A DNA stretch of 24,000 nt from Candidatus Aquidulcis sp. (GTDB lineage: Bacteria > Chloroflexota > Anaerolineae > UBA4142). Below, in pieces: positions 2,138 through 21,155 of the stretch; within the stretch, counting starts at the first letter, position 1; each line of letters begins with the position of its first letter. The translations under genes were made by a program, and so were the position numbers. The stretch lies in contig DYJA01000022.1 in NCBI GenBank assembly GCA_020723345.1, positions 29,308 through 53,307 of the forward strand. Direction: 5' to 3'. The notes beneath the pieces were generated by a model, which was not told the DNA's origin, did not search any database, and was given only the letters and a program-made list of their open reading frames with translations.

Positions 2138-5100
2138 TCATTTCACATTCTCCAACGCGTACTCAATCGCTTGCTCGCGCGACATGGTTCGTCCTTCCGC
2201 TTGTGCCGCGCTAAAAGTTGCTTCATCCAATTGCGCGCGCGCGATGGCGAAATAGTATTCGCGCTCGGCGGCATCGGCGGGCGTGTAGACACCCTCCCCG
2301 CGCGTTCCAAGCGCATCCACCGCGCCAAACAATCGCGCGGCGCGCGCGAATTGTTTTTCGGCAGTCGCGATAAACGCGAATCCTTCCAGAGCGCCAATAA
2401 TGATGGGGGCACGCGCGGCTTGGCGCGCGAGCGCGAGACTTTCCGTCAACAATTTGCGCGCGCGCGTCACATCGCCGAGCCGCAACACGGTTACGCCGAG
2501 GTTGCCCAGCACAATTGCATTTCCGAGCAACGTGCCCAAGTCCTGTGCAATCGCGAGCGCTTCCTCGTAATATATTTTTGCGCGCGGATAATCCTGTTCC
2601 ACGCGCGCGATTTCGCCCAGGGTAAGCAACGCATTGCTGGCAAGGAGGCGATCCTTGCGCGCGCGAAAAAACTGCAATGCTTCTTCGTTTTGCCGACGCG
2701 CGGTTGCGTAATCGCCGTCGCGAAAATGGACGCGCGCGATGTCGCGATACAACACCATTGCCCAGCGTTGGTCGCCCAATTTGCTGAACGCGGCGTGGCT
2801 CGCTTCAAACGCGGCGCGCGCGGCTTGGCGATTACCTTCGTTCAAAAAGCGATGCCCCCGATAATGCAGAATCGTCGCGCTCATCCATTCATCGCCCAGC
2901 ACTTGCGCGATTGCCCAACTTTCATCTTCGAGAGCTTGCGAGCGTTCAGGTTGCTCTGTCCGGATGACCAAACTCAATTCTGCCAAACCCATCGCGAGTT
3001 GGCGTTGACCGGGCGCGCCGCACGCGCGCGCGATCTCAATCGTTTCTTCCAGATAGGGACGCGCCGCTTTGCCCGATTCGACATTCTCCGCCAACGCCGC
3101 GAGCGTGAATAACGCGCGCGCGCGCGCCAATGTTTTTTCTGCGGCTTCCGGTCGCGCCAAAAGTTTCTGAATCCGCGCGTACGCCTCGCTCGAATACGCC
3201 CGCAAATCCCAGAACAAGCGCAATGCGCCGACGATCTGCAGTCCTTTTTGCGCGCGACCTGGACTCTGCGACCAATCCAGCGCGGCGCGCAAATTATCGT
3301 GTTCGACATCAAGCCGATCCAACCATTCGAATTGTTCCGCGCCCATCAACCTAGGTTCGACGTTTTCCGCAAACGCGACAAAAAAATCGAGATGCCGATC
3401 GCGAATCGTTTCCACTTCGCCCGATTCCAACAAACGATCCCGCGCGTACTGCCGAATCGTCTCCATCAGCCGATAGCGCGTTTCCGCATCGTGCGGTTCG
3501 ACGATCACGAGCGACTTGTCCACCAATCGCGCAAGCAAGTCAAGCACATCGTCCGCGCAAACGGGATCGCAACCGCACACGGCTTGCGCGGCATCGAGCG
3601 TCCATCCGCCCGCGAACACGGACAGGCGGCGTAACAACACGCGCTCTTCTTCGGTCAACAGACTAAAACTCCAATCAATCAGCGCGCGCAATGTTTGCTG
3701 ACGCGGCAGCGCGGTGCGACTGCCACCCGTGAGCAAACGAAAACGGTCGTCCAACCGCGCCGCGATCTGTTCGACGCTCAGCGTTTTCACGCGCACCGCC
3801 GCGAGTTCGAGCGCGAGCGGAATCCCGTCCAGCCGGTGACAGATTTGCGCGACCGCCGTCGCGTTCGCATTCGTCACCGCGAAATTGGACTGGACCGCGA
3901 GCGCGCGATCAATGAACAGACGCACGGCTTCGTACTGCGATAGACTTGCCAAGTCTTGGAGACTTTGCAAGTCTGCGGGCGGCAACGCGAGCGACGGGAC
4001 GCGATACGCCGTTTCGCCGACGATGCCCAACGCTTCGCGGCTGCTTGCGAGAATTTTCAACTGGGGACACGCGCGCAAAAGCGCGTCGGCAAGTTGCGCG
4101 CACGCGTCAATCAAGTGTTCGCAGTTGTCGAGGATGAGCAACAGGTCTTTCGCGCGAAGATAATTTGTGAGGACGGTCGTGATTGGCGTGTTCGGTTGTT
4201 CTTCCAATTTGAACACAGCGGCGATTGTCTGAGGTACGAGCATGGGATCGCTGAGCGCGGCGAGTTCAACCCACCACACGCCATTCTTGAATTGATTCGC
4301 ATTCGCGAGTTCCGTCGCCAGTTGAATCGCGAGCCGCGTCTTGCCCGCGCCGCCCGCGCCCGTCAACGTGAGCAAGCGCGTCTTCCCAACGAGTTCCTTC
4401 AGTTCCCTCAGTTCCCTTGCTCTTCCGATGAAACTCGTCAGCGGCGCGGGCACATTCGTGAACAGCGCCTCGCGCGCTTTGCCGCCCGTCAACGCGGCTT
4501 CGATCTGATCGCGCAGCGCGAGCGTCTCTTTGGATGGCTCGACGCCCAGTTCGTCGCGCAGTTTCTTTTCGCACGCGTCGTACTGCTTCAGCGCGCCGAT
4601 GCGGTCACCGGTTGCCGCGAGGCAAAAGATGATGTGCTGGTACGCTTTCTCGTTCGCGGGATCGCTCGCCAACGCTTTCCGCGCGAATTCAACCGCGCGC
4701 GCGTACTCGCTTTTCGCGCGATGGTGTTGCGCGAGTCGCAAGAGCGCGTCGAGATACAGCGCGCGCAAGCGTTCGCGTTCGGGGAGAATCCAATCGTCGT
4801 AGAAGTCGGAGAGCAAGTCATCATGATAATCTTCGATTTTCGATTTCAGATTTTCGATTTCCAAATCGACAATCGGCAATCGCAAATCGAAAATCTGGCG
4901 CGCGTCGACCCAAAGGGGAAAATCAGGATTGAGTTGTACGGTCTCGCGATCTGCGATGACCACATCGTCGCCAAGTTCTTTGCGGATGGCGGCAAGCGCG
5001 GTGCGGAGCGAGTGACGCGCCTGCTCGTCGGGGACATCGCCCCAGAGGAGCGCGGCAAGTTTTTCGCGAGGATGCGCTTCGGGGAAAAGCGCGAGGTAAG

Positions 5101-5209
5101 CCAGCAGCGATTCGACTTTGCGCGTGGCAAGACGGATCGAACCGGAATCGCTTTCGATCTGAAATGCGCCGAGCAAGTGAAGACGATAGCGCGGAGATTT
5201 GCGCGCCAT
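2138..5209 (-). CDS. SARP/AfsR-family regulator: wHTH + BTAD + NB-ARC (STAND ATPase) + TPR repeats
   Basis: 1023 aa. N-terminal OmpR-type wHTH (LLGAFQIE...LLAYLAL...LWGD). BTAD helices (ERERLRALYLDALLRLA...GALKQYDACEKKLRDELGVEPS). P-loop LTGAGGAGKTRLA, Walker B LLILDNCEH and GIPLALELAA. The C-terminal ~450 aa are TPR-like. AAGGGG SD lies before ATG 5209, and a consensus-like promoter lies upstream. Confidence 0.9.
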   Translation of the reverse strand: MARKSPRYRLHLLGAFQIESDSGSIRLATRKVESLLAYLALFPEAHPREKLAALLWGDVPDEQARHSLRTALAAIRKELGDDVVIADRETVQLNPDFPLWVDARQIFDLRLPIVDLEIENLKSKIEDYHDDLLSDFYDDWILPERERLRALYLDALLRLAQHHRAKSEYARAVEFARKALASDPANEKAYQHIIFCLAATGDRIGALKQYDACEKKLRDELGVEPSKETLALRDQIEAALTGGKAREALFTNVPAPLTSFIGRARELRELKELVGKTRLLTLTGAGGAGKTRLAIQLATELANANQFKNGVWWVELAALSDPMLVPQTIAAVFKLEEQPNTPITTVLTNYLRAKDLLLILDNCEHLIDACAQLADALLRACPQLKILASSREALGIVGETAYRVPSLALPPADLQSLQDLASLSQYEAVRLFIDRALAVQSNFAVTNANATAVAQICHRLDGIPLALELAAVRVKTLSVEQIAARLDDRFRLLTGGSRTALPRQQTLRALIDWSFSLLTEEERVLLRRLSVFAGGWTLDAAQAVCGCDPVCADDVLDLLARLVDKSLVIVEPHDAETRYRLMETIRQYARDRLLESGEVETIRDRHLDFFVAFAENVEPRLMGAEQFEWLDRLDVEHDNLRAALDWSQSPGRAQKGLQIVGALRLFWDLRAYSSEAYARIQKLLARPEAAEKTLARARALFTLAALAENVESGKAARPYLEETIEIARACGAPGQRQLAMGLAELSLVIRTEQPERSQALEDESWAIAQVLGDEWMSATILHYRGHRFLNEGNRQAARAAFEASHAAFSKLGDQRWAMVLYRDIARVHFRDGDYATARRQNEEALQFFRARKDRLLASNALLTLGEIARVEQDYPRAKIYYEEALAIAQDLGTLLGNAIVLGNLGVTVLRLGDVTRARKLLTESLALARQAARAPIIIGALEGFAFIATAEKQFARAARLFGAVDALGTRGEGVYTPADAAEREYYFAIARAQLDEATFSAAQAEGRTMSREQAIEYALENVK
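4831..4893. repeat. palindromic heptamer array (9 units, 63 bp) inside the SARP gene
   Basis: cttcgat tttcgat ttcagat tttcgat ttccaaa tcgacaa tcggcaa tcgcaaa tcgaaaa. The left units are the reverse complement of the right units, and about 24 of 30 positions pair around the centre at 4861/4862. It encodes FDLRLPIVDLEIENLKSKIE between the wHTH and BTAD domains. Confidence 0.85.
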
Positions 5210-5266
5210 TGGACGCCCCTTGGCGAAAAAGACGTTTTCGTCGAATCCAAACTGCGTGCGGCAAGA

Positions 5267-5295
5267 ATCTTAGCACCGATGCGCCGCGATGTCAA
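5267..5295 (-). promoter_or_regulatory. sigma70-type promoter for the SARP/STAND gene
   Basis: The minus strand reads TTGACA (complement of 5290-5295), 17 nt, TAAGAT (complement of 5267-5272), with TGc just upstream of the -10 (extended -10). Confidence 0.6.
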
Positions 5296-5312
5296 AAGTC
5301 AGGCGCTCCCGA

Positions 5313-5342
5313 TTCGCCATTCGCTCTGACCTGTGCTAAAAT
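5313..5342 (+). promoter_or_regulatory. candidate mutL promoter giving a leaderless or near-leaderless mRNA
   Basis: TTCGCC (5313-5318), 18 nt, TGcTAAAAT (-10 hexamer 5337-5342). The -10 ends 7 nt before the mutL ATG (5350), and there is no SD. Confidence 0.4.
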
Positions 5343-5349
5343 ATTGCCG

Positions 5350-7122
5350 ATGCCAATTCACATTTTGCCCGACGACCTCGCCTCGAAAATCGCGGCGGGC
5401 GAAGTGATCGAACGCCCCGCGTCGGTCGTCAAAGAGTTGCTCGAAAATTCGATTGATGCGGGCGCGCGCGAAATCAAGATCGAAATTCGCGGCGGCGGTC
5501 AGCGCTTGATCCGCGTCGCGGACGACGGCGGCGGCATTCCCACAGCCGAGGTCGCGACCGCGTTCGCGCGTCACGCGACGAGCAAACTCAATTCGGTGGA
5601 CGACTTGTTCAAGCTCCAGACGCTCGGTTTTCGCGGTGAAGCGCTGCCGTCGATTGCGGCGGTCTCGCGCGTCACACTCATCACCCGCGCGCGCGGCGAA
5701 GCATCGGGGACGCAGATGCGCGTCGACGGCGGCAAGATCGTCGAACAGCGCGCGCAAGGCGCGCCACAAGGTACGATTGTCACCGTCGAAGATTTGTTTC
5801 GCCACGTGCCCGCGCGCTTGAAATTCCTCAAGACTCCGGCAACCGAAGCCGGACGCATCGCCGATCTGATCAACGCGTACGCGCTTGCGTATCCCGCGCT
5901 GCGGTTCTCACTCGTGAATGACGATCGCTTGCTGTTTCAATCGCCCGGCACCGGGAAAATGTTCGACGTATTGGTGAAGGTGTTTGGGATCGAAATCGCG
6001 AATCAGATGTTGGAGGTTGGAAATTGGAAATTGGAAAATACGGCGGAAGGCGCGTCCAGTGTTCAACCTCTAACTTTTAACCTCCAACCTCCAACCTCCA
6101 ACATCCAGGTTTCCGGTTTCATTTCTCCGCCCGCCGTCAATCGCTCGTCGCGCAAATACATGCTCTTTTTCGTCAACCATCGCTGGGTGCAAGATCGCAC
6201 GTTGCAGCACGCGGTCATCGAAGCGTACCACACCGCGCTGATGGTCGGACGCGCGCCGATTGTCGCGCTCGACATCGCGCTGCCGCCGGACACGGTGGAC
6301 GTGAACGTGCATCCGACAAAAAGCGAAGTGCGTTTCCGCGACACGAGCGCGGTTTTTCGCGCGGTGCAGCACACCGCCCGCGCCGCGCTCACCGCGCACG
6401 CGCCGATTCCGACGATCAGCGCTTCCGCGCCCCCTTCGACTATCGCTCAGGGCGCGCCGCGCCGCGCCGAAACCCAACTCGCGATTGACTTGCACCGCCC
6501 AATTCCAACTTCCAATCTCCAATCTCCTGATCGCCCGATTGCCCAATTGCCCATGTTGCGCGTCCTCGGTCAAATCCTTTCGACGTACATCATTGCCGAA
6601 GGACCCGACGGCTTGTATTTGATCGATCAACATTCGGCGCACGAGCGCGTGCTGTACGAGCAATTGATGGCGGAGCGCGCCAGCGCGCAAGTCGTCGCGC
6701 AAGAATTGATCGATCCGCTCGCGCTGCAACTCACGCCCGCGCAGCAAGCCGCGCTCGAAACGCATCGCGACGCGCTCGCGTCGGTCGGCTTCAAGTTCGA
6801 GGATTTCGGCGCGCAGACGATTTTGCTGCGCGCGGTACCGGCGGTGATGAAAAAGAGCGATCCGCGCGACGCGCTCGCGCACATTCTCGACGAGTTGGAA
6901 CAAGGCGAAACGCCGCTCGAAAAATCGGCAGAAGCGCGTTTGATTTCGAGCGTATGCAAAAGCATCGCGGTGAAAGGCGGACAAGTGCTATCGCTCGAAG
7001 AAATGCGCGAACTCGTGCGGCGCTTGGAGCAGACGACCGCGCCGCGGACTTGTCCGCACGGCAGACCGACGATGATTCAATTGAACATCGGACAATTGGA
7101 AAGAGAGTTCGGCAGAAAGTAA
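5350..7122 (+). CDS. mutL: DNA mismatch repair protein MutL
   Basis: MPIHILPDDLASKIAAGEVIERPASVVKELLENSIDAGA (GHKL ATPase N-terminus), DDGGGI, GFRGEAL, VNHRWV, VDVNVHPTKSEVRF. The C-terminal dimerisation/endonuclease region has LYLIDQHSAHERVLYE and CPHGRP. The ORF-track start 5164 is an upstream extension without homology. Confidence 0.93.
   Translation: MPIHILPDDLASKIAAGEVIERPASVVKELLENSIDAGAREIKIEIRGGGQRLIRVADDGGGIPTAEVATAFARHATSKLNSVDDLFKLQTLGFRGEALPSIAAVSRVTLITRARGEASGTQMRVDGGKIVEQRAQGAPQGTIVTVEDLFRHVPARLKFLKTPATEAGRIADLINAYALAYPALRFSLVNDDRLLFQSPGTGKMFDVLVKVFGIEIANQMLEVGNWKLENTAEGASSVQPLTFNLQPPTSNIQVSGFISPPAVNRSSRKYMLFFVNHRWVQDRTLQHAVIEAYHTALMVGRAPIVALDIALPPDTVDVNVHPTKSEVRFRDTSAVFRAVQHTARAALTAHAPIPTISASAPPSTIAQGAPRRAETQLAIDLHRPIPTSNLQSPDRPIAQLPMLRVLGQILSTYIIAEGPDGLYLIDQHSAHERVLYEQLMAERASAQVVAQELIDPLALQLTPAQQAALETHRDALASVGFKFEDFGAQTILLRAVPAVMKKSDPRDALAHILDELEQGETPLEKSAEARLISSVCKSIAVKGGQVLSLEEMRELVRRLEQTTAPRTCPHGRPTMIQLNIGQLEREFGRK
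6006..6106. repeat. ~100-bp heptamer-built palindrome inside mutL
   Basis: Left arm gttggag gttggaa attggaa attggaa. Right arm aacctct aactttt aacctcc aacctcc aacctcc aacatcc. There is a perfect 16-bp basal stem, 6006-6021 / 6090-6105, with further imperfect pairing inward. It encodes GNWKLENTAEGASSVQPLTFNLQPPTSNIQ. Confidence 0.9.
6500..6555. repeat. heptamer array (8 units) in the MutL inter-domain linker
   Basis: caattcc aacttcc aatctcc aatctcc tgatcgc ccgattg cccaatt gcccatg. It encodes PIPTSNLQSPDRPIAQLPM. Confidence 0.8.
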
Positions 7123-7123
7123 T

Positions 7124-7151
7124 CCAATTTAGGATTTGCGATTTAGGATTG
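7124..7151. repeat. heptamer array directly after the mutL stop
   Basis: ccaattt aggattt gcgattt aggattg. It starts 2 nt after TAA 7120-7122. Confidence 0.75.
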
Positions 7152-10101: not shown

Positions 10102-10812
10102 TCAAATCTTCCCTTTCAAAATTCCATACAACCACGTCGGCTCGCCGGTAACGCGCGTGACGTAATACCATACCAGCGCGAACGCTTCACGCGCGGTGTA
10201 CTGCGCGCGCAGATTCGCGCGCGCGTACGTCGGACTGTCGCTCGCGCCGGAGCCATACGCTTCGATTCCCACGTCGCGCGCGATGATTTCGGCGCGATAG
10301 AGGTGAAACGGATCACTGACGATGATCGCGCTGCGCCAGCCGCGCGCGTCCATCAACCTTTTCGCGTTCGTCAGACTCGCTTCCGTCGAATGCGATTGGT
10401 CTTCGAGCACGAGCGCGTCTGCCGGGACGCCTGCGCCAGTAGCAATGCGCCGCATCACTTCGGCTTCGCTCGGCGGATTGCCGCCGACGCCGCCGCACAA
10501 AATCAGATGCGCCGCATAACCCGCTTGGTACAACGCGATCGCGTGCTGCGTCCGCGCCAACAACGACGGCGAGGGACGCTCGTTTGCCCACACCGCCGAA
10601 CCCAGTACGATGATCGCGTCGGCGCGGCGCGCGCGGTCGATTTGCGAACGCGCGTCGACGCGCGCGTACAAGATTGCCAGCACTGCGAGAACAAGCGCAA
10701 ACGCGCCCCACGCGAGCATCACCCATTTCCGCTTACGCCTACCGTTCACTGTTGACTGTTCACCGTTCACTGTTGACCGTTCACCGTTCACGGTTGACTG
10801 TTCACCGTTCAC
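10102..10812 (-). CDS. DUF218 / YdcF-ElyC-SanA family membrane-anchored protein
   Basis: RRKRKW + TM (VMLAWGAFALVLAVLAILY), then ADAIIVLGSAV, LILCGGVG, SHSTEASL and IIVSDPFHLYRA (DUF218 pattern). The first ~25 codons of the ORF-track model (GTG 10812) are the heptamer array, so the true start may be ATG 10719. The stop is 10 nt from the next gene, so the two probably form an operon. Confidence 0.8.
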   Translation of the reverse strand: MNGEQSTVNGERSTVNGEQSTVNGRRKRKWVMLAWGAFALVLAVLAILYARVDARSQIDRARRADAIIVLGSAVWANERPSPSLLARTQHAIALYQAGYAAHLILCGGVGGNPPSEAEVMRRIATGAGVPADALVLEDQSHSTEASLTNAKRLMDARGWRSAIIVSDPFHLYRAEIIARDVGIEAYGSGASDSPTYARANLRAQYTAREAFALVWYYVTRVTGEPTWLYGILKGKI

Positions 10813-10849
10813 CGTTCACGGTTGACTGTTCACCGTTCACGGTTCACTG
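10738..10849. repeat. 16-unit direct heptamer array (TTCACCG / TTGACTG variants)
   Basis: cctaccg ttcactg ttgactg ttcaccg ttcactg ttgaccg ttcaccg ttcacgg ttgactg ttcaccg ttcaccg ttcacgg ttgactg ttcaccg ttcacgg ttcactg. All units have one orientation, with no spacers. On the minus strand it reads MNGEQSTVNGERSTVNGEQSTVNG. Confidence 0.92.
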
Positions 10850-10996: not shown

Positions 10997-11031
10997 AATT
11001 TGAGATTGGAGATTTGAGATTTCCAATCTCC
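10997..11031. repeat. heptamer hairpin element abutting the nusA SD
   Basis: aatttga gattgga gatttga gatttcc aatctcc. GGAGATT (11008-11014) pairs with AATCTCC (11025-11031). The SD AGAAGAGGA follows directly. Confidence 0.8.
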
Positions 11032-11046
11032 AGAAGAGGACCGCAC

Positions 11047-16031: not shown

Positions 16032-17006
16032 ATGGGAACGACACTCACATTCGAGCAAGCCGTCGAACTGTTTCGACGCCACAATCAAATTTTCGTCGCG
16101 GCGCACATCATGCCGGACGGTGACTGCATCGGCTCCGCGCTCGGCTTGACGTGGGCGCTGCGAAAAATCGGCAAGACGGTGACGGTGACGTGTCCCGATC
16201 ACGTTTCGAACACGTTCAAGTTTTTGCCGGGCTTTGAAGAGCTCGCGCCCAAGACGCCGACCGGCGAAGAGTTCCTGGTTTTCGTGGACGGCAGCTCGGC
16301 GGATCGCTTTGGCGCGGCGTACGATCCGGCGAAATTCAACGGCAGACCGGTGCTCGTCATCGATCATCACGTCACCAACGATAATTTCGCGCCGCTCAAT
16401 TTCGTGGATCGGCGCGTCGCGTCCACCGCCGAAATCATTTTTCGTTTCGTCAACGCGTTCGGCGTATCGTTCGACCGCAACCTCGCGCAGTGTTTGCTGA
16501 CCGGCATCGTCACCGACACGCTCGGCTTTCGCACCGCGAACACGACGGTCGACACGCTCAAGACCGTGACCGCGTTGATGGAAGCGGGCGGCTCGATTCC
16601 CGAAATCATCGAACATTCCTTCAACCAAGTTCCGCTGGCGAGTTTGCGATTGCGCGGCAAGATTTTCAGCAGCGCGATGCTCGACGGCGTGATTCTGTGG
16701 GCGGAGGTGCCGTTCAAGTTGCAGCGCGAACTGGGGTTGAACGGCAACGGCACCGGCGGCATCATCAATCAATTGCTCAGCGTCGAGGACGCGAAGATCG
16801 CCGCGCTGTTCACCGAAAAAGAAAACGGCAAAATCGACATTGGCTTGCGTTCGCGCGTCGGCTACGATGTCGCGGCAATCGCCGCGCGGCTCGGCGGCGG
16901 CGGACACAAACAGGCGTCGGGCGCGTTGCTGGACGGACCGCTGGCGGCGGCGCGGGAACGCGTGCTTGCCGAGATCAAAAAGGCGATCAGTCAATCGGGC
17001 AACTAG
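16032..17006 (+). CDS. nrnA: DHH/DHHA1 phosphoesterase (NrnA-like oligoribonuclease / pAp phosphatase)
   Basis: HIMPDGDCIGSALGL, LVIDHHVTN, GIVTDTLGF and GGGGHKQASGA motifs. The last 7 codons (ISQSGN*) are supplied by the downstream repeat element. Confidence 0.88.
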   Translation: MGTTLTFEQAVELFRRHNQIFVAAHIMPDGDCIGSALGLTWALRKIGKTVTVTCPDHVSNTFKFLPGFEELAPKTPTGEEFLVFVDGSSADRFGAAYDPAKFNGRPVLVIDHHVTNDNFAPLNFVDRRVASTAEIIFRFVNAFGVSFDRNLAQCLLTGIVTDTLGFRTANTTVDTLKTVTALMEAGGSIPEIIEHSFNQVPLASLRLRGKIFSSAMLDGVILWAEVPFKLQRELGLNGNGTGGIINQLLSVEDAKIAALFTEKENGKIDIGLRSRVGYDVAAIAARLGGGGHKQASGALLDGPLAAARERVLAEIKKAISQSGN

Positions 17007-17066
17007 GCAATCAGTCAATCAGGCGATCAGGCGACCGATTGCCCGATTGACTGATTGACCAATCAC
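16983..17066. repeat. heptamer-word palindromic element spanning the nrnA stop and the truB upstream region
   Basis: Perfect 15-bp inverted repeat CAGTCAATCGGGCAA (16988-17002) / TTGCCCGATTGACTG (17039-17053), extendable by about 4 bp. The text is built of GATTGAC / CAATCAG / GGCGATC words with 7-nt phasing. Confidence 0.88.
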
Positions 17067-21080: not shown

Positions 21081-21147
21081 GAGTATTCAGTGTTCAGTAT
21101 TCAGTGTTCGGTATCCAGTGTTCAACAACCCGGACACTGAATACTGG
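21081..21147. repeat. heptamer array + inverted arm hairpin between archease and rtcB
   Basis: gagtatt cagtgtt cagtatt cagtgtt cggtatc cagtgtt ... The 13-bp perfect stem CAGTATTCAGTGT (21095-21107) / ACACTGAATACTG (21134-21146) is extendable to about 17 bp. The rtcB SD GGAGG (21146-21150) touches the 3' arm. Confidence 0.88.
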
Positions 21148-21155
21148 AGGTTGCG

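Follow-up and report, generated by a model that had tools for sequence, protein, structure and literature searches.

A heptanucleotide-repeat hairpin in frame within a mutL gene of the Anaerolineae

Tandem repeats of seven-nucleotide units have been described in several bacteria: the STRR of Calothrix and Nostoc, GGGAATC in Xanthomonas, GGGGAYT in Nostoc and TAACTGA in the Beggiatoaceae are the closest kin of the arrays considered here (PMC4692102, PMC4679880). Many bacteria have more of these heptanucleotide SSRs than expected, and related genomes differ in their lengths (PMC4692102, PMC4679880); Mrazek et al. 2007, cited by the same two papers, observed a general excess of period 7. By published accounts nearly all such repeats lie between genes, and a genome usually has one dominant unit or a few. 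With the arrays described below they have in common the tandem 7-nt units, an excess of period 7, variation in unit number and sequence, an occasional inverted arrangement, and no known function. Our literature search found no report tying heptamer repeats to Chloroflexota.

The structure that concerns us lies inside a mutL gene, in a window of 24,000 nucleotides, the whole stretch of DNA that was analysed. We consider it reasonably probable that this structure is a slippage-born, self-homogenising heptanucleotide SSR hairpin, tolerated in a permissive loop of the protein and belonging to a lineage-wide set of arrays of 7-nt, sometimes 8-nt, units.

The hairpin and its host gene

The host is an intact mutL gene of the endonuclease type, at 5350-7122 on the + strand, recognised by Pfam domains, database match and motifs; it codes for 590 aa, and its true start is the ATG at 5350, inside the 5164-7122 ORF. 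A promoter-like site upstream ends at 5342. The product is 100% identical to database protein P0001, for which 120 orthologues are listed, and the GHKL ATPase, transducer and C-terminal dimerisation domains are all present (Pfam HATPase_c_3, DNA_mis_repair and MutL_C; PF13589/PF02518, PF01119 and PF08676, all above cut-offs). Solved MutL N-terminal domains match it at E = 6e-77, and its translation contains the two endonuclease motifs, DQHSAHERVLYE, of DQHA(X)2E(X)4E type, and CPHGRP, both invariant in the orthologue alignment A1. The genome from which the gene comes belongs to the Anaerolineae (Chloroflexota).

The heptamer-repeat hairpin occupies 6006-6105 of the + strand, or MutL residues ~220-252, as given by inverted-repeat search, TRF, and RNA and DNA folds. 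Its left arm (6006-6037, +), delimited by reading the sequence, by TRF and by comparison with two related loci, L161 and L163, has four units, (GATG)TTGGAGG and three copies of TTGGAAA. A non-repetitive, GC-rich apical spacer follows at 6038-6063 (+; sequence read, DNA/RNA fold), and the right arm, at 6064-6105 (+; sequence read, TRF), has ~6-7 units of the CAACCTC/TAACTTT type. TRF finds 3.0 copies of TTGGAAA at 6017-6037 with 100% matches, and 6.3 copies of CAACCTC at 6064-6107 with 81% matches: each arm holds at least three head-to-tail 7-nt copies, which is what defines a heptanucleotide SSR, and the longest perfect tract per arm is three units at most.

An earlier note on this DNA had described a perfect 16-bp stem within the mutL frame, built on perfect repeat units, and had called for folding the region around 6000-6110. 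Direct reading bears out the stem, since 6006-6021 (GATGTTGGAGGTTGGA) and 6090-6105 (TCCAACCTCCAACATC) are exact reverse complements of each other, and the perfect units are there, three AACCTCC at 6079-6099 and two ATTGGAA at 6023-6036. The fold is indeed stable: the segment 5996-6116 folds at -49.7 kcal/mol as RNA (z = -6.6) and at -23.1 kcal/mol as DNA (z = -3.9), and 0/200 shuffles fold as well in either case. According to the repeat finder, the stem extends to 23 nt at 91% complementarity, with alternative registers offset by whole units. We calculate an expectation of ~5e-4 per 24 kb for perfect inverted repeats of 16 bp that lie within ~100 nt; the pattern AACCTCCAACCTCC, with at most 3 mismatches, occurs 11 times versus 0.78 expected. 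The GC content of the hairpin is 47%, versus 58% for the window. An internal terminator was rejected, the hairpin having no terminator-like tail, as was a known structured RNA, since no Rfam family reaches its gathering score, and no covariance model matches, anywhere in the window.

The hairpin is read in frame in the 5164-7122 ORF, where it encodes ...EVGNWKLENTAEGASSVQPLTFNLQPPTSNIQVSGFISPP..., and the apical spacer holds stop codons in both alternative frames. At the protein level it adds ~22 residues to the beta-hairpin turn of the MutL transducer domain. This agrees with the earlier note, which expected extra residues at a position that is otherwise taken up by a short strand pair in MutL: the loop has 26 residues, versus 4 in 9n2k_A, the closest solved MutL N-terminal domain. 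It measures 34 codons, whereas the mode across most of the surveyed MutL genes is 12, and the Pfam DNA_mis_repair alignment resumes only at profile position 20, past the insert. The conjecture of a surface loop fits the AlphaFold model, in which residues 228-244 have pLDDT <50 and are flanked by confident strands, 221-223 and 253-258. The insert is thus modelled as an unstructured, low-confidence coil between two confident strands, and it probably leaves the function of MutL undisturbed.

Period-7 arrays in the window and in its relatives

The window contains 11 period-7 arrays at about nine loci, of which four are wholly intragenic, one lies across a stop codon, and four are intergenic. In mutL itself, a second array at 6499-6560 (+; TRF, fold) runs from CCAATCT heptamers into GCCCAATT octamers in the disordered interdomain linker; these are direct repeats that form no significant hairpin (z = -0.8), and the array is also found in L001, L002, L005, L161 and L163. 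The middle domain of a Mur ligase holds an in-frame heptamer hairpin at 540-615 (+; CGACCAA / TCAGCGG; dG -31, z = -3.5), and L161 carries arrays of different sequence at the homologous site. Another in-frame hairpin, at 4832-4895 on the - strand (TTCGATT / AAATCGA; z = -4.8), lies in the BTAD/NB-ARC regulator gene 2138-5209, with a different array at the homologous site of L163. An octamer-unit hairpin at 16981-17060 (dG -40.3, z = -6.5) spans the stop codon of a DHH-family gene and the gap preceding truB. Between genes, TRF reports an ATTTAGG array directly past the mutL stop codon (7127-7150) and 15 ACCGTTC units in the gap between a DUF218 gene and nusA (10741-10847); a GAGATTT/GGAGATT hairpin lies 5' of nusA or at its start (10998-11035, z = -3.4), and an AGTATTC/AGTGTTC hairpin upstream of rtcB (21082-21150, z = -4.6). 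The hairpin is not particular to mutL: the same kind of array lies in frame in the Mur ligase and the regulator, and between genes as well.

The excess extends to close relatives: compared with the 11 arrays of the 24-kb window, close relatives have 27 over 38 kb, whereas 309 kb from other Chloroflexota yield 13 and 572 kb from outgroups yield 7, as judged from these 24 kb and the relatives' loci rather than from whole genomes. The enrichment is confined to period 7. In the close clade, 66 arrays have 35 different units, so that they form no single sequence family.

Among 114 MutL orthologues, the hairpin loop is the most length-variable part, with 0-60 residues, and length varies only there and in the linker. 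All loops are open and in frame in the orthologues from short-read assemblies. The nearest comparisons show changes of whole units: the right arm has 7 units in the window, L161 and L163 alike, and the left arm has 4 in the window versus 7 in the two others. The window allele is thus a clean in-frame loss of 21 nt, or three units, from one arm only, and the deletion leaves a three-unit overhang unpaired; conversely, orthologue P0012 reads like a product of the gain of three units. The repeats of the hairpin arms make the alignment register arbitrary. Further away, hairpins made of different units stand at the same mutL loop in L001, L004, L005, L009, L011 and L013, and loop hairpins are found in lineages down to 49% MutL protein identity. 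In L002 and L003, with flanks at 80-82% identity, the pairing is lost (z ~0) and the loop is kept at 31-32 residues. A loop of 12 codons, without structure, is the form seen in many Anaerolineae and in almost every other MutL gene. A metagenome scan with general peptide patterns (AGEVIERP, DVNVHP[TA]K) returned loci that, among the matches listed, are all at <=52% identity, and these served the survey of the loop rather than that of population variation.

These comparisons divide the earlier proposal of an insertion. The segment is extra and in frame, as proposed; it is not private to this genome, being one of a clade-wide series of variable, repeat-encoded loops. A homologous segment of equal length encoded by non-repetitive DNA was not found across the orthologues, in which the loop is repeat-encoded and variable, and the interpretation as an insert produced by slippage therefore stands.

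One may ask whether the loop matters as a peptide. If the encoded GNWKLE...TSNLQPPTSN had a role in the protein, for instance as a lineage-specific interaction loop on the transducer, the repetitiveness of the DNA would be incidental. The insert is found in most members of the close clade, and in L002 and L003 the loop was still long, undeleted, once the hairpin had decayed. However, neither the length (0-60 residues) nor the sequence of the loop is conserved, as the unrelated SSFKFQ, RDSRLE and GEIGDWR illustrate; AlphaFold gives it low confidence and no secondary structure; and the peptides are a mere three-frame read-out of whichever heptamer is there. We regard such a role as extremely unlikely.

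It is also natural to think of a mobile palindromic element, of MITE, REP or RPE type, that inserted in mutL and was kept since it fell in frame in a loop. The parallel with Rickettsia palindromic elements drawn in the earlier note, an in-frame palindrome in a surface loop (PMC10969869), is apt as an analogy. Moreover, P0008, P0010, P0031 and others have in the same loop a different, non-heptamer palindrome, GTCATTGCGAGCGAAGCGAAGCAATC...GCCTCGCAATGAC, which suggests that the site can receive insertions; the second palindromic element (VIASEAKQSP...LAMT) is absent from the window and, among the loci searched, occurs only in L166. However, the window has no second copy of the mutL hairpin, matches to its units being limited to short arrays at 6507-6527 and 11001-11021; 66 arrays with 35 unrelated units have no family consensus; and apart from the units themselves we saw neither target duplications nor inverted repeats at the termini. 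The mutL relatives differ by graded numbers of units, changed as wholes within the arms, and not by the presence or absence of a defined element or by a clean filled or empty site; comparison with the 12-codon loop of distant MutL genes gave no definable junction. A mobile origin thus appears quite improbable.

Origin of the arrays and the question of a mutator switch

Returning to the slippage-born SSR, the arrays would arise and change length through replication slippage of whole 7-nt units, and 7-nt loops would be poor substrates for MutS/MutL repair, as in S. pombe, where such loops are left unrepaired by MutS-alpha/MutL-alpha (PMC5427490). Template switching is known to act on imperfect inverted repeats (PMC7202029), and intrastrand switching between the arms, by this quasipalindrome mechanism, may keep inverted arrays complementary. 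Selection would act as a filter, the intragenic survivors being those that are stop-free in frame, count multiples of three units, and lie at structurally permissive sites: in MutL, these would be the transducer beta-hairpin turn, for the 6006-6105 hairpin, and the interdomain linker. Once translated, the hairpin would yield a disordered loop of ~22 residues with no demonstrated function of its own. We infer both slippage and template switching as generating mechanisms, and the mutL hairpin is presumably neutral. It is probably not essential, since L002 and L003 have lost the pairing and keep a loop of 31-32 residues.

The Ca. Roseilinea loci L009 and L013 fit this account less well. Their mutL hairpin arms are the sole period-7 arrays in 8-14 kb, with nearly perfect stems of 19-20 bp and, in L009, a fold z-score down to -8.2. 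This is more persistence and perfection than purely neutral birth and death obviously predicts, and it counts against a view based on slippage only, with the proviso that broad orthologue sampling covered mutL only, so that the persistence of the site is open to ascertainment bias. A possible response is that an RNA or DNA structure is selected in mutL and kept by compensatory evolution across the Anaerolineae; it might be a translational pause between ATPase and transducer, an mRNA stability element, or a protein-binding cruciform. Complementary arms made of different units in the same loop, down to 49-56% protein identity, speak for such selection, as do the Roseilinea stems and the very stable folds of both the window and L009. 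Against it, L002 and L003 have an intact gene without the pairing, the 12-codon unstructured loop is found in many Anaerolineae and in nearly all other MutL genes, the window allele has an unpaired three-unit overhang, and hairpins of an equivalent kind are present between genes and within genes unrelated to mutL; neither an Rfam match nor a terminator-like tail was found. In the close clade, furthermore, the fold of the antisense RNA equals or surpasses that of the sense RNA (in L001, -60.6 vs -26.8 kcal/mol), which fits a DNA-level process over selection on the mRNA. Distant lineages show the opposite, and the excess of G-U pairs in the close clade was traced to one unit variant spread through an arm; as a test of the strand under selection, the comparison is not informative. 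On balance, we judge a selected structure unlikely.

A related reading, which we also find rather improbable, is that an active, clade-specific process, either a peculiarity of replication or repair or a dedicated enzyme, seeds inverted 7-nt arrays and maintains the complementarity of their arms, the mutL site being selected across the Anaerolineae as a nucleic-acid structure that may serve, for example, to pause translation or to switch a mutator state slowly and reversibly. It would explain the near-perfect hairpins in the mutL loop of the array-poor Ca. Roseilinea.

The mutator switch deserves separate discussion, since it was the proposal of the earlier note: the hairpin would be a contingency tract, in which the gain or loss of one unit reversibly toggles MutL and gives mutator subpopulations. 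Its premise is correct. The unit length of 7 is not a multiple of 3, so that within the ORF any single-unit change shifts the frame of mutL, and simulated changes of +/-1 heptamer unit all cut MutL at 238-381 aa, short of the endonuclease domain. Changes of repeat length in mutL are, moreover, known to give rise to mutators of E. coli, reportedly described by Shaver and Sniegowski 2003. The tract in that case consists of three 6-bp repeats, whose changes stay in frame, and classic contingency tracts are long, perfect and polymorphic within populations. Heptamer loops also evade mismatch repair in S. pombe, where (ATCGTCC)5 changes ~7e-6 times per generation (PMC5427490).

However, the evidence on the switch itself is negative. 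Each arm has three perfect units only, the arrays of the orthologues are interrupted, and similar arrays occur in many genes where switching is senseless. Two population variants, L163 and L164, differ by 4 SNPs and 0 indels over 11.8 kb that hold 8 arrays. The exact protein of one relative recurs on 11 contigs, and 14 contigs carry the exact protein of a cluster-mate. No change of loop length was seen in the 18 of ~57 cluster members that were read (from 7 of the ten 90%-identity clusters), the remaining members being compared by total length only; this absence of polymorphism is to be read with the fact that protein-based searches are largely blind to frameshifted, or OFF, mutL alleles.

Candidates for such alleles were considered. 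The truncated orthologues of the first search (P0102, P0087 and others) were rejected, their breaks lying in the C-terminal domain or at contig ends, and none at the hairpin. A search with the N-terminal 222 residues of MutL returned many fragments that stop within or just past the loop, and their sources are long-read assemblies rich in errors, or the ends of contigs. In the three long contigs that were examined (L167, L168 and L169), neighbouring genes are likewise split, and mutL either is broken in frame at several points or has an in-frame TGA beyond which the frame resumes; as evidence of switching they were rejected, and they are taken as probable consensus errors. Programmed translational bypass, as in T4 gene 60 or the mitochondrial 'byp' elements, was rejected as well: in the DNA loci from short-read assemblies the loop is open, with a length divisible by three, and the intact orthologue proteins continue through it, none of which a bypassed insert would require. 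All in all, a mutator switch at this hairpin seems to us very unlikely.

Consequences and comparison with known systems

If the account by slippage and tolerance is right, slippage products can establish themselves inside genes for conserved enzymes even when the unit length is no multiple of three, in this Anaerolineae clade inside those of MutL, a Mur ligase and a STAND-type regulator, and the arrays persist over long evolutionary times as hypervariable translated loops. This would be a mechanism of loop innovation separate from the insertion of mobile elements, and a natural experiment on where in a protein arbitrary insertions can be accepted. On the practical side, heptamer hairpins are spots of assembly breaks and of clustered consensus errors in long reads, which can yield false calls of 'truncated mutL', and thus false mutator genotypes, in metagenome-assembled genomes.

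SSR contingency loci and the mutL mutators of E. coli resemble the hairpin in that a short tandem repeat, in mutL in the latter case, changes length and thereby alters or abolishes MutL; here there are three perfect units and no polymorphism was seen, and the E. coli case stays in frame. REP and BIME sequences also form stable hairpins at gene ends and between cistrons, as do those at 16981-17060 and 21082-21150, but REPs have a shared consensus and RAYT transposases, whereas the arrays of the window have no consensus and no transposase in the DNA seen. RPEs are closer in their placement, being palindromic DNA of ~100-150 bp in frame in unrelated housekeeping genes at fold-compatible positions (PMC10969869). 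They are regarded as mobile elements and fall into sequence families, in each of which the consensus and the encoded peptide are conserved; the mutL hairpin, in contrast, has neither dispersed copies nor consensus, and is made of tandem 7-nt units that change as wholes.

Template switching at quasipalindromes, by which imperfect inverted repeats drift to perfect complementarity, would explain arms that co-vary without selection (PMC7202029). The demonstrations of it concern single hotspots, in E. coli and yeast reporters, rather than arrays of tandem units, to which we extend it by inference. The heptanucleotide SSRs thus remain the nearest relatives, from which the present arrays differ in three respects: they use at least 35 units, most of the arrays are paired in inverted orientation and so fold into hairpins, and roughly half of the arrays are in frame in genes, including those of conserved housekeeping enzymes.

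The mutL hairpin and the protein that carries it

The mutL frame of the window contains, in frame, a palindrome at 6006-6105 whose left arm (6006-6037) and right arm (6064-6105) are tandem runs of 7-nt units. Read directly, the intervals 6006-6021 (GATGTTGGAGGTTGGA) and 6090-6105 are exact reverse complements; in a repeat finder the complementarity reaches 23 nt at 91%, with several alternative registers shifted by whole units. TRF reports TTGGAAA x3.0 at 6017-6037, with 100% matches, and CAACCTC x6.3 at 6064-6107; AACCTCC forms three perfect units at 6079-6099. The GC content of the element is 47%, versus 58% for the window. The region 5996-6116 folds at -49.7 kcal/mol as RNA (z = -6.6) and at -23.1 kcal/mol as DNA (z = -3.9), and in both cases none of 200 dinucleotide shuffles is as good. 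The palindrome that an earlier note had read in this gene, with its 16-bp inverted arms and heptamer units, is borne out.

The biologically sensible start of mutL is the ATG at 5350, from which the frame encodes 590 aa, identical to the database protein P0001; the source names of the closest relatives place the organism among Anaerolineae (Chloroflexota) metagenome-assembled genomes. Pfam detects the GHKL ATPase, DNA_mis_repair and MutL_C domains. Since the protein has these domains, and also DQHSAHERVLYE and CPHGRP, endonuclease motifs that do not vary across orthologues, the gene looks functional from its sequence. Divergent promoter-like sites lie at 5267-5342, between the neighbouring regulator gene and mutL; on the plus strand, the -10 box TAAAAT, preceded by a TG, stops 8 nt short of the ATG, which suggests a mutL mRNA that is leaderless or has a very short leader.

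Residues 6-223 and 250-332 of the window protein align with 9n2k_A, the MutL N-terminal domain of closest solved structure, in which a loop of 4 residues stands against 26 in the window protein, and the match to the Pfam transducer model restarts only at profile position 20, beyond the insert. Over 85 MutL loci, 'QM' and the conserved strand are separated by 36 nt (12 codons) in most Chloroflexota as well as in other phyla, and by 102 nt in the window. An AlphaFold2 model built with 88 orthologues has strands at 221-223 and 253-258 with coil in between, and a pLDDT that falls below 50 at residues 228-244, for 85-91 in the flanking transducer blocks. The hairpin segment is an insertion relative to MutL in general, as the earlier note had held. 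In view of the alignment, the Pfam gap, the loop survey and the modelled coil, its roughly 22 extra residues, counted against 9n2k_A and the 12-codon norm, lengthen a beta-hairpin turn as a loop that is probably disordered.

Heptamer arrays in orthologues and across the clade

In an alignment of 120 MutL orthologues (56-100% identity), the loop ranges from 0 to about 60 residues, and translated heptamers are legible in many of them: GNWKLE...TSNLQ, SSFKFQ...LKPET, SGSKFKV...ETLNLEPET, RDSRLE...SPISNLQ. Among the 114 full-length orthologues, length differences are confined to two regions: this loop, where the sd is 11.7 residues, and the linker between the domains. The DNA of orthologous loci has hairpins of 7-nt units at the loop, with unit sequences that differ between lineages: TTCAAAG / CTTGAAC in L001 (82% identity); the window's own units, in a shorter element, in L005 (76%); GACGAAN / TTCGTC in L004 (56%); and GGAGATT / AATCTCC, in near-perfect stems of 19-20 bp, in the Ca. 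Roseilinea loci L009 and L013 and the Brachytrichaceae locus L011 (49-50%). In a further lineage, L169, the arms are octamers. Two loci with 80-82% flank identity, L002 and L003, keep loops of 31-32 residues with one-arm remnants, and show no significant fold there (z about 0); many other Anaerolineae MutL genes have the plain 12-codon loop. The hairpin is not private to the window genome.

At L166 (1075-1190, encoding P0008), the same loop holds a different, non-heptamer palindrome, GTCATTGCGAGCGAAGCGAAGCAATC ... GCCTCGCAATGAC, adjoining the vestiges of a left arm of heptamer/octamer type. It translates as VIASEAKQSP...LAMT, an element recognized by peptide in P0010, P0031, P0033, P0080, P0088, P0096 and P0102, and is absent from the window and the other 168 loci.

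About nine loci of the window carry arrays, 11 of period 7 and some of octamers: four loci are wholly within coding sequence, one lies across a stop codon and four are intergenic. Hairpin folds with z from -3.4 to -6.6 are obtained for six of the nine. Besides the MutL loop, the coding ones are an in-frame heptamer hairpin in the middle domain of a Mur ligase (540-615, units CGACCAA / TCAGCGG, dG -31, z = -3.5); another on the minus strand (4832-4895, TTCGATT / AAATCGA) in a BTAD/NB-ARC/TPR regulator of 1023 aa (gene 2138-5209), between its N-terminal DNA-binding region and its BTAD domain; and an array in the MutL linker (6499-6560, CCAATCT / TTCCAAC). The syntenic relatives L161 and L163 have arrays at the homologous Mur ligase and regulator sites, with sequences that differ from the window: different arrays in the L161 Mur ligase, and a different array in the L163 regulator, which is only 48% identical. 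The linker array persists at the homologous linker in L001, L002, L005, L161 and L163, and a 5-residue length difference between P0255 and P0253, members of one 90% cluster, lies in the linker.

A highly stable hairpin of 8-nt units (16981-17060, dG -40.3, z = -6.5) spans the stop codon of a DHH-family (DHH/DHHA1) gene and occupies the gap up to truB, resembling an intercistronic stem-loop. The intergenic arrays are at 7127-7150, 10998-11035, 21082-21150 and 10741-10847. The last, the longest in the window, has 15 ACCGTTC-type units with a higher-order period of 21/28 nt; it lies between a divergent DUF218 gene, whose start it may overlap, and nusA.

Close relatives have 27 period-7 arrays in 38 kb (16 per 10 kb in L001), against 13 in 309 kb of other Chloroflexota and 7 in 572 kb of outgroups: the clade shows a strong excess of period 7. 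Among 66 arrays in the close clade there are 35 distinct canonical units, AT-rich, the GGARRTT group being the commonest, and no family consensus; the mutL element is not repeated elsewhere in the window. Array hairpins are not specific to mutL, whose element is a single case of something seen across the clade.

Unit changes and the possibility of a mutator switch

In L161 (P0002, 88% identity) and L163 (P0003, 85%), the mutL hairpin is 129 nt long, with seven units per arm. The window allele has four left-arm and seven right-arm units, with flanks and spacer identical to theirs: a clean, in-frame difference of three units (21 nt) in one arm only, as a consequence of which the inner right-arm units are unpaired. 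Two other orthologues, P0012 and P0015, read like the product of a gain of three units. In simulations, gains or losses of three units keep mutL in frame, and those of one unit, in either arm, shift the frame, as the earlier note had anticipated, and truncate the protein at 238-381 aa; a +1 change in one arm is not rescued by a -1 change in the other, since both alternative frames of the spacer contain stops.

The suggestion that such changes make mutL a contingency locus was tested by proxies, namely population variants, protein clusters and truncated orthologues, all of them assembled sequences. The population variants L163 and L164, which encode the same MutL, differ by 4 substitutions and 0 indels over 11,827 nt that include eight arrays, and over 8,380 nt L165 matches L163 exactly. 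A DUF6909 gene, intact in L163, is annotated as two pieces in L164 (7559-9259); since these four substitutions are the only differences, a point (nonsense) change is implied. The exact P0003 protein occurs on 11 contigs from several samples, and its cluster-mate P0241 on 14. From ten 90%-identity clusters (about 57 members), 18 members of seven clusters were read and the others compared by total length only: none of the 18 shows a change of loop length; where they differ, it is in the start codon chosen, in the linker or in the C-terminal domain.

No truncated orthologue of a first search breaks at the hairpin. A search with the 222 N-terminal residues of MutL returns many fragments that end at the loop: in the three examined on long contigs, neighbouring genes are also fragmented and mutL has multiple frame anomalies; other fragments stop at contig ends. 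What the fragments show is that assembly and consensus calling run into difficulty at the hairpin; they do not show biological switching. In the long-read assemblies L167 (about 4700-4740) and L169 (about 4700-4730), an in-frame TGA occurs inside the loop hairpin and the frame is restored downstream; it is likely a consensus error, since neighbouring genes are also fragmented.

In S. pombe, a five-unit heptamer tract undergoes about 7e-6 changes per generation, independently of MutS-alpha/MutL-alpha (PMC5427490). The mutL tract, by our own reasoning, should be slower, with only three perfect units. The initial observation is confirmed and its reading as an insert is right; a device specific to mutL is rejected, and the mutator switch is unsupported, given the constant loop length in the variants and cluster members read and the three perfect units.

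Origin of the arrays and known systems

The anatomy is consistent with two known mutational processes and a subsequent step of selection. Polymerase slippage would add or remove whole 7-nt units; an excess and length variability of heptamer SSRs are known in other bacteria, and were ascribed to polymerase slippage by Mrazek and colleagues (PMC4692102, PMC4679880). Between the inverted arms, intrastrand template switching, a process at work on imperfect palindromes, or quasipalindromes (PMC7202029), would let the two co-vary without selection. Finally, selection would weed out arrays that bring stops into the reading frame or lie where the structure is intolerant, as well as changes other than multiples of three units.

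The weakest point of this model is Ca. Roseilinea, where a near-perfect hairpin sits at exactly the same MutL loop with no other heptamer array within 8-14 kb; for this reason we keep the reading of the hairpin as a selected structure, improbable as we judge it. Such a structure sits badly with L002 and L003, in which pairing has decayed while the loop stays long, and with the unpaired overhang of the window allele. Moreover, in the close clade (window, L161, L163, L001, L005, L002, L003) the antisense RNA folds equally well or better than the sense, because one arm systematically has A where the other has C; for L001, with 12 G-U pairs, the energies are -60.6 kcal/mol antisense versus -26.8 sense. 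In more distant lineages the strands show the opposite. Taken together, the three observations fit a process at the level of DNA better than a selected mRNA structure. The main value of the case lies in its evidence that hairpins of non-triplet SSRs can persist for long inside conserved coding sequences; it is also a caution for the annotation of metagenome-assembled genomes.

The parallel with Rickettsia palindromic elements (PMC10969869), drawn at the outset, holds in that the mutL hairpin is a palindrome lying in frame where the protein is permissive, but not in the defining feature of these elements and of MITEs, dispersed copies that share a consensus. As a contingency locus, it has only the trivial attribute of a unit length not divisible by three. 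Our literature search found no paper linking heptamer repeats to Chloroflexota. The closest class is that of heptanucleotide long SSRs, such as the cyanobacterial STRR and GGGGAYT, GGGAATC of Xanthomonas and TAACTGA of Beggiatoaceae; compared with these, the arrays described here have many unit types, are mostly organized as hairpins, and lie, for about half of them, in frame within genes.
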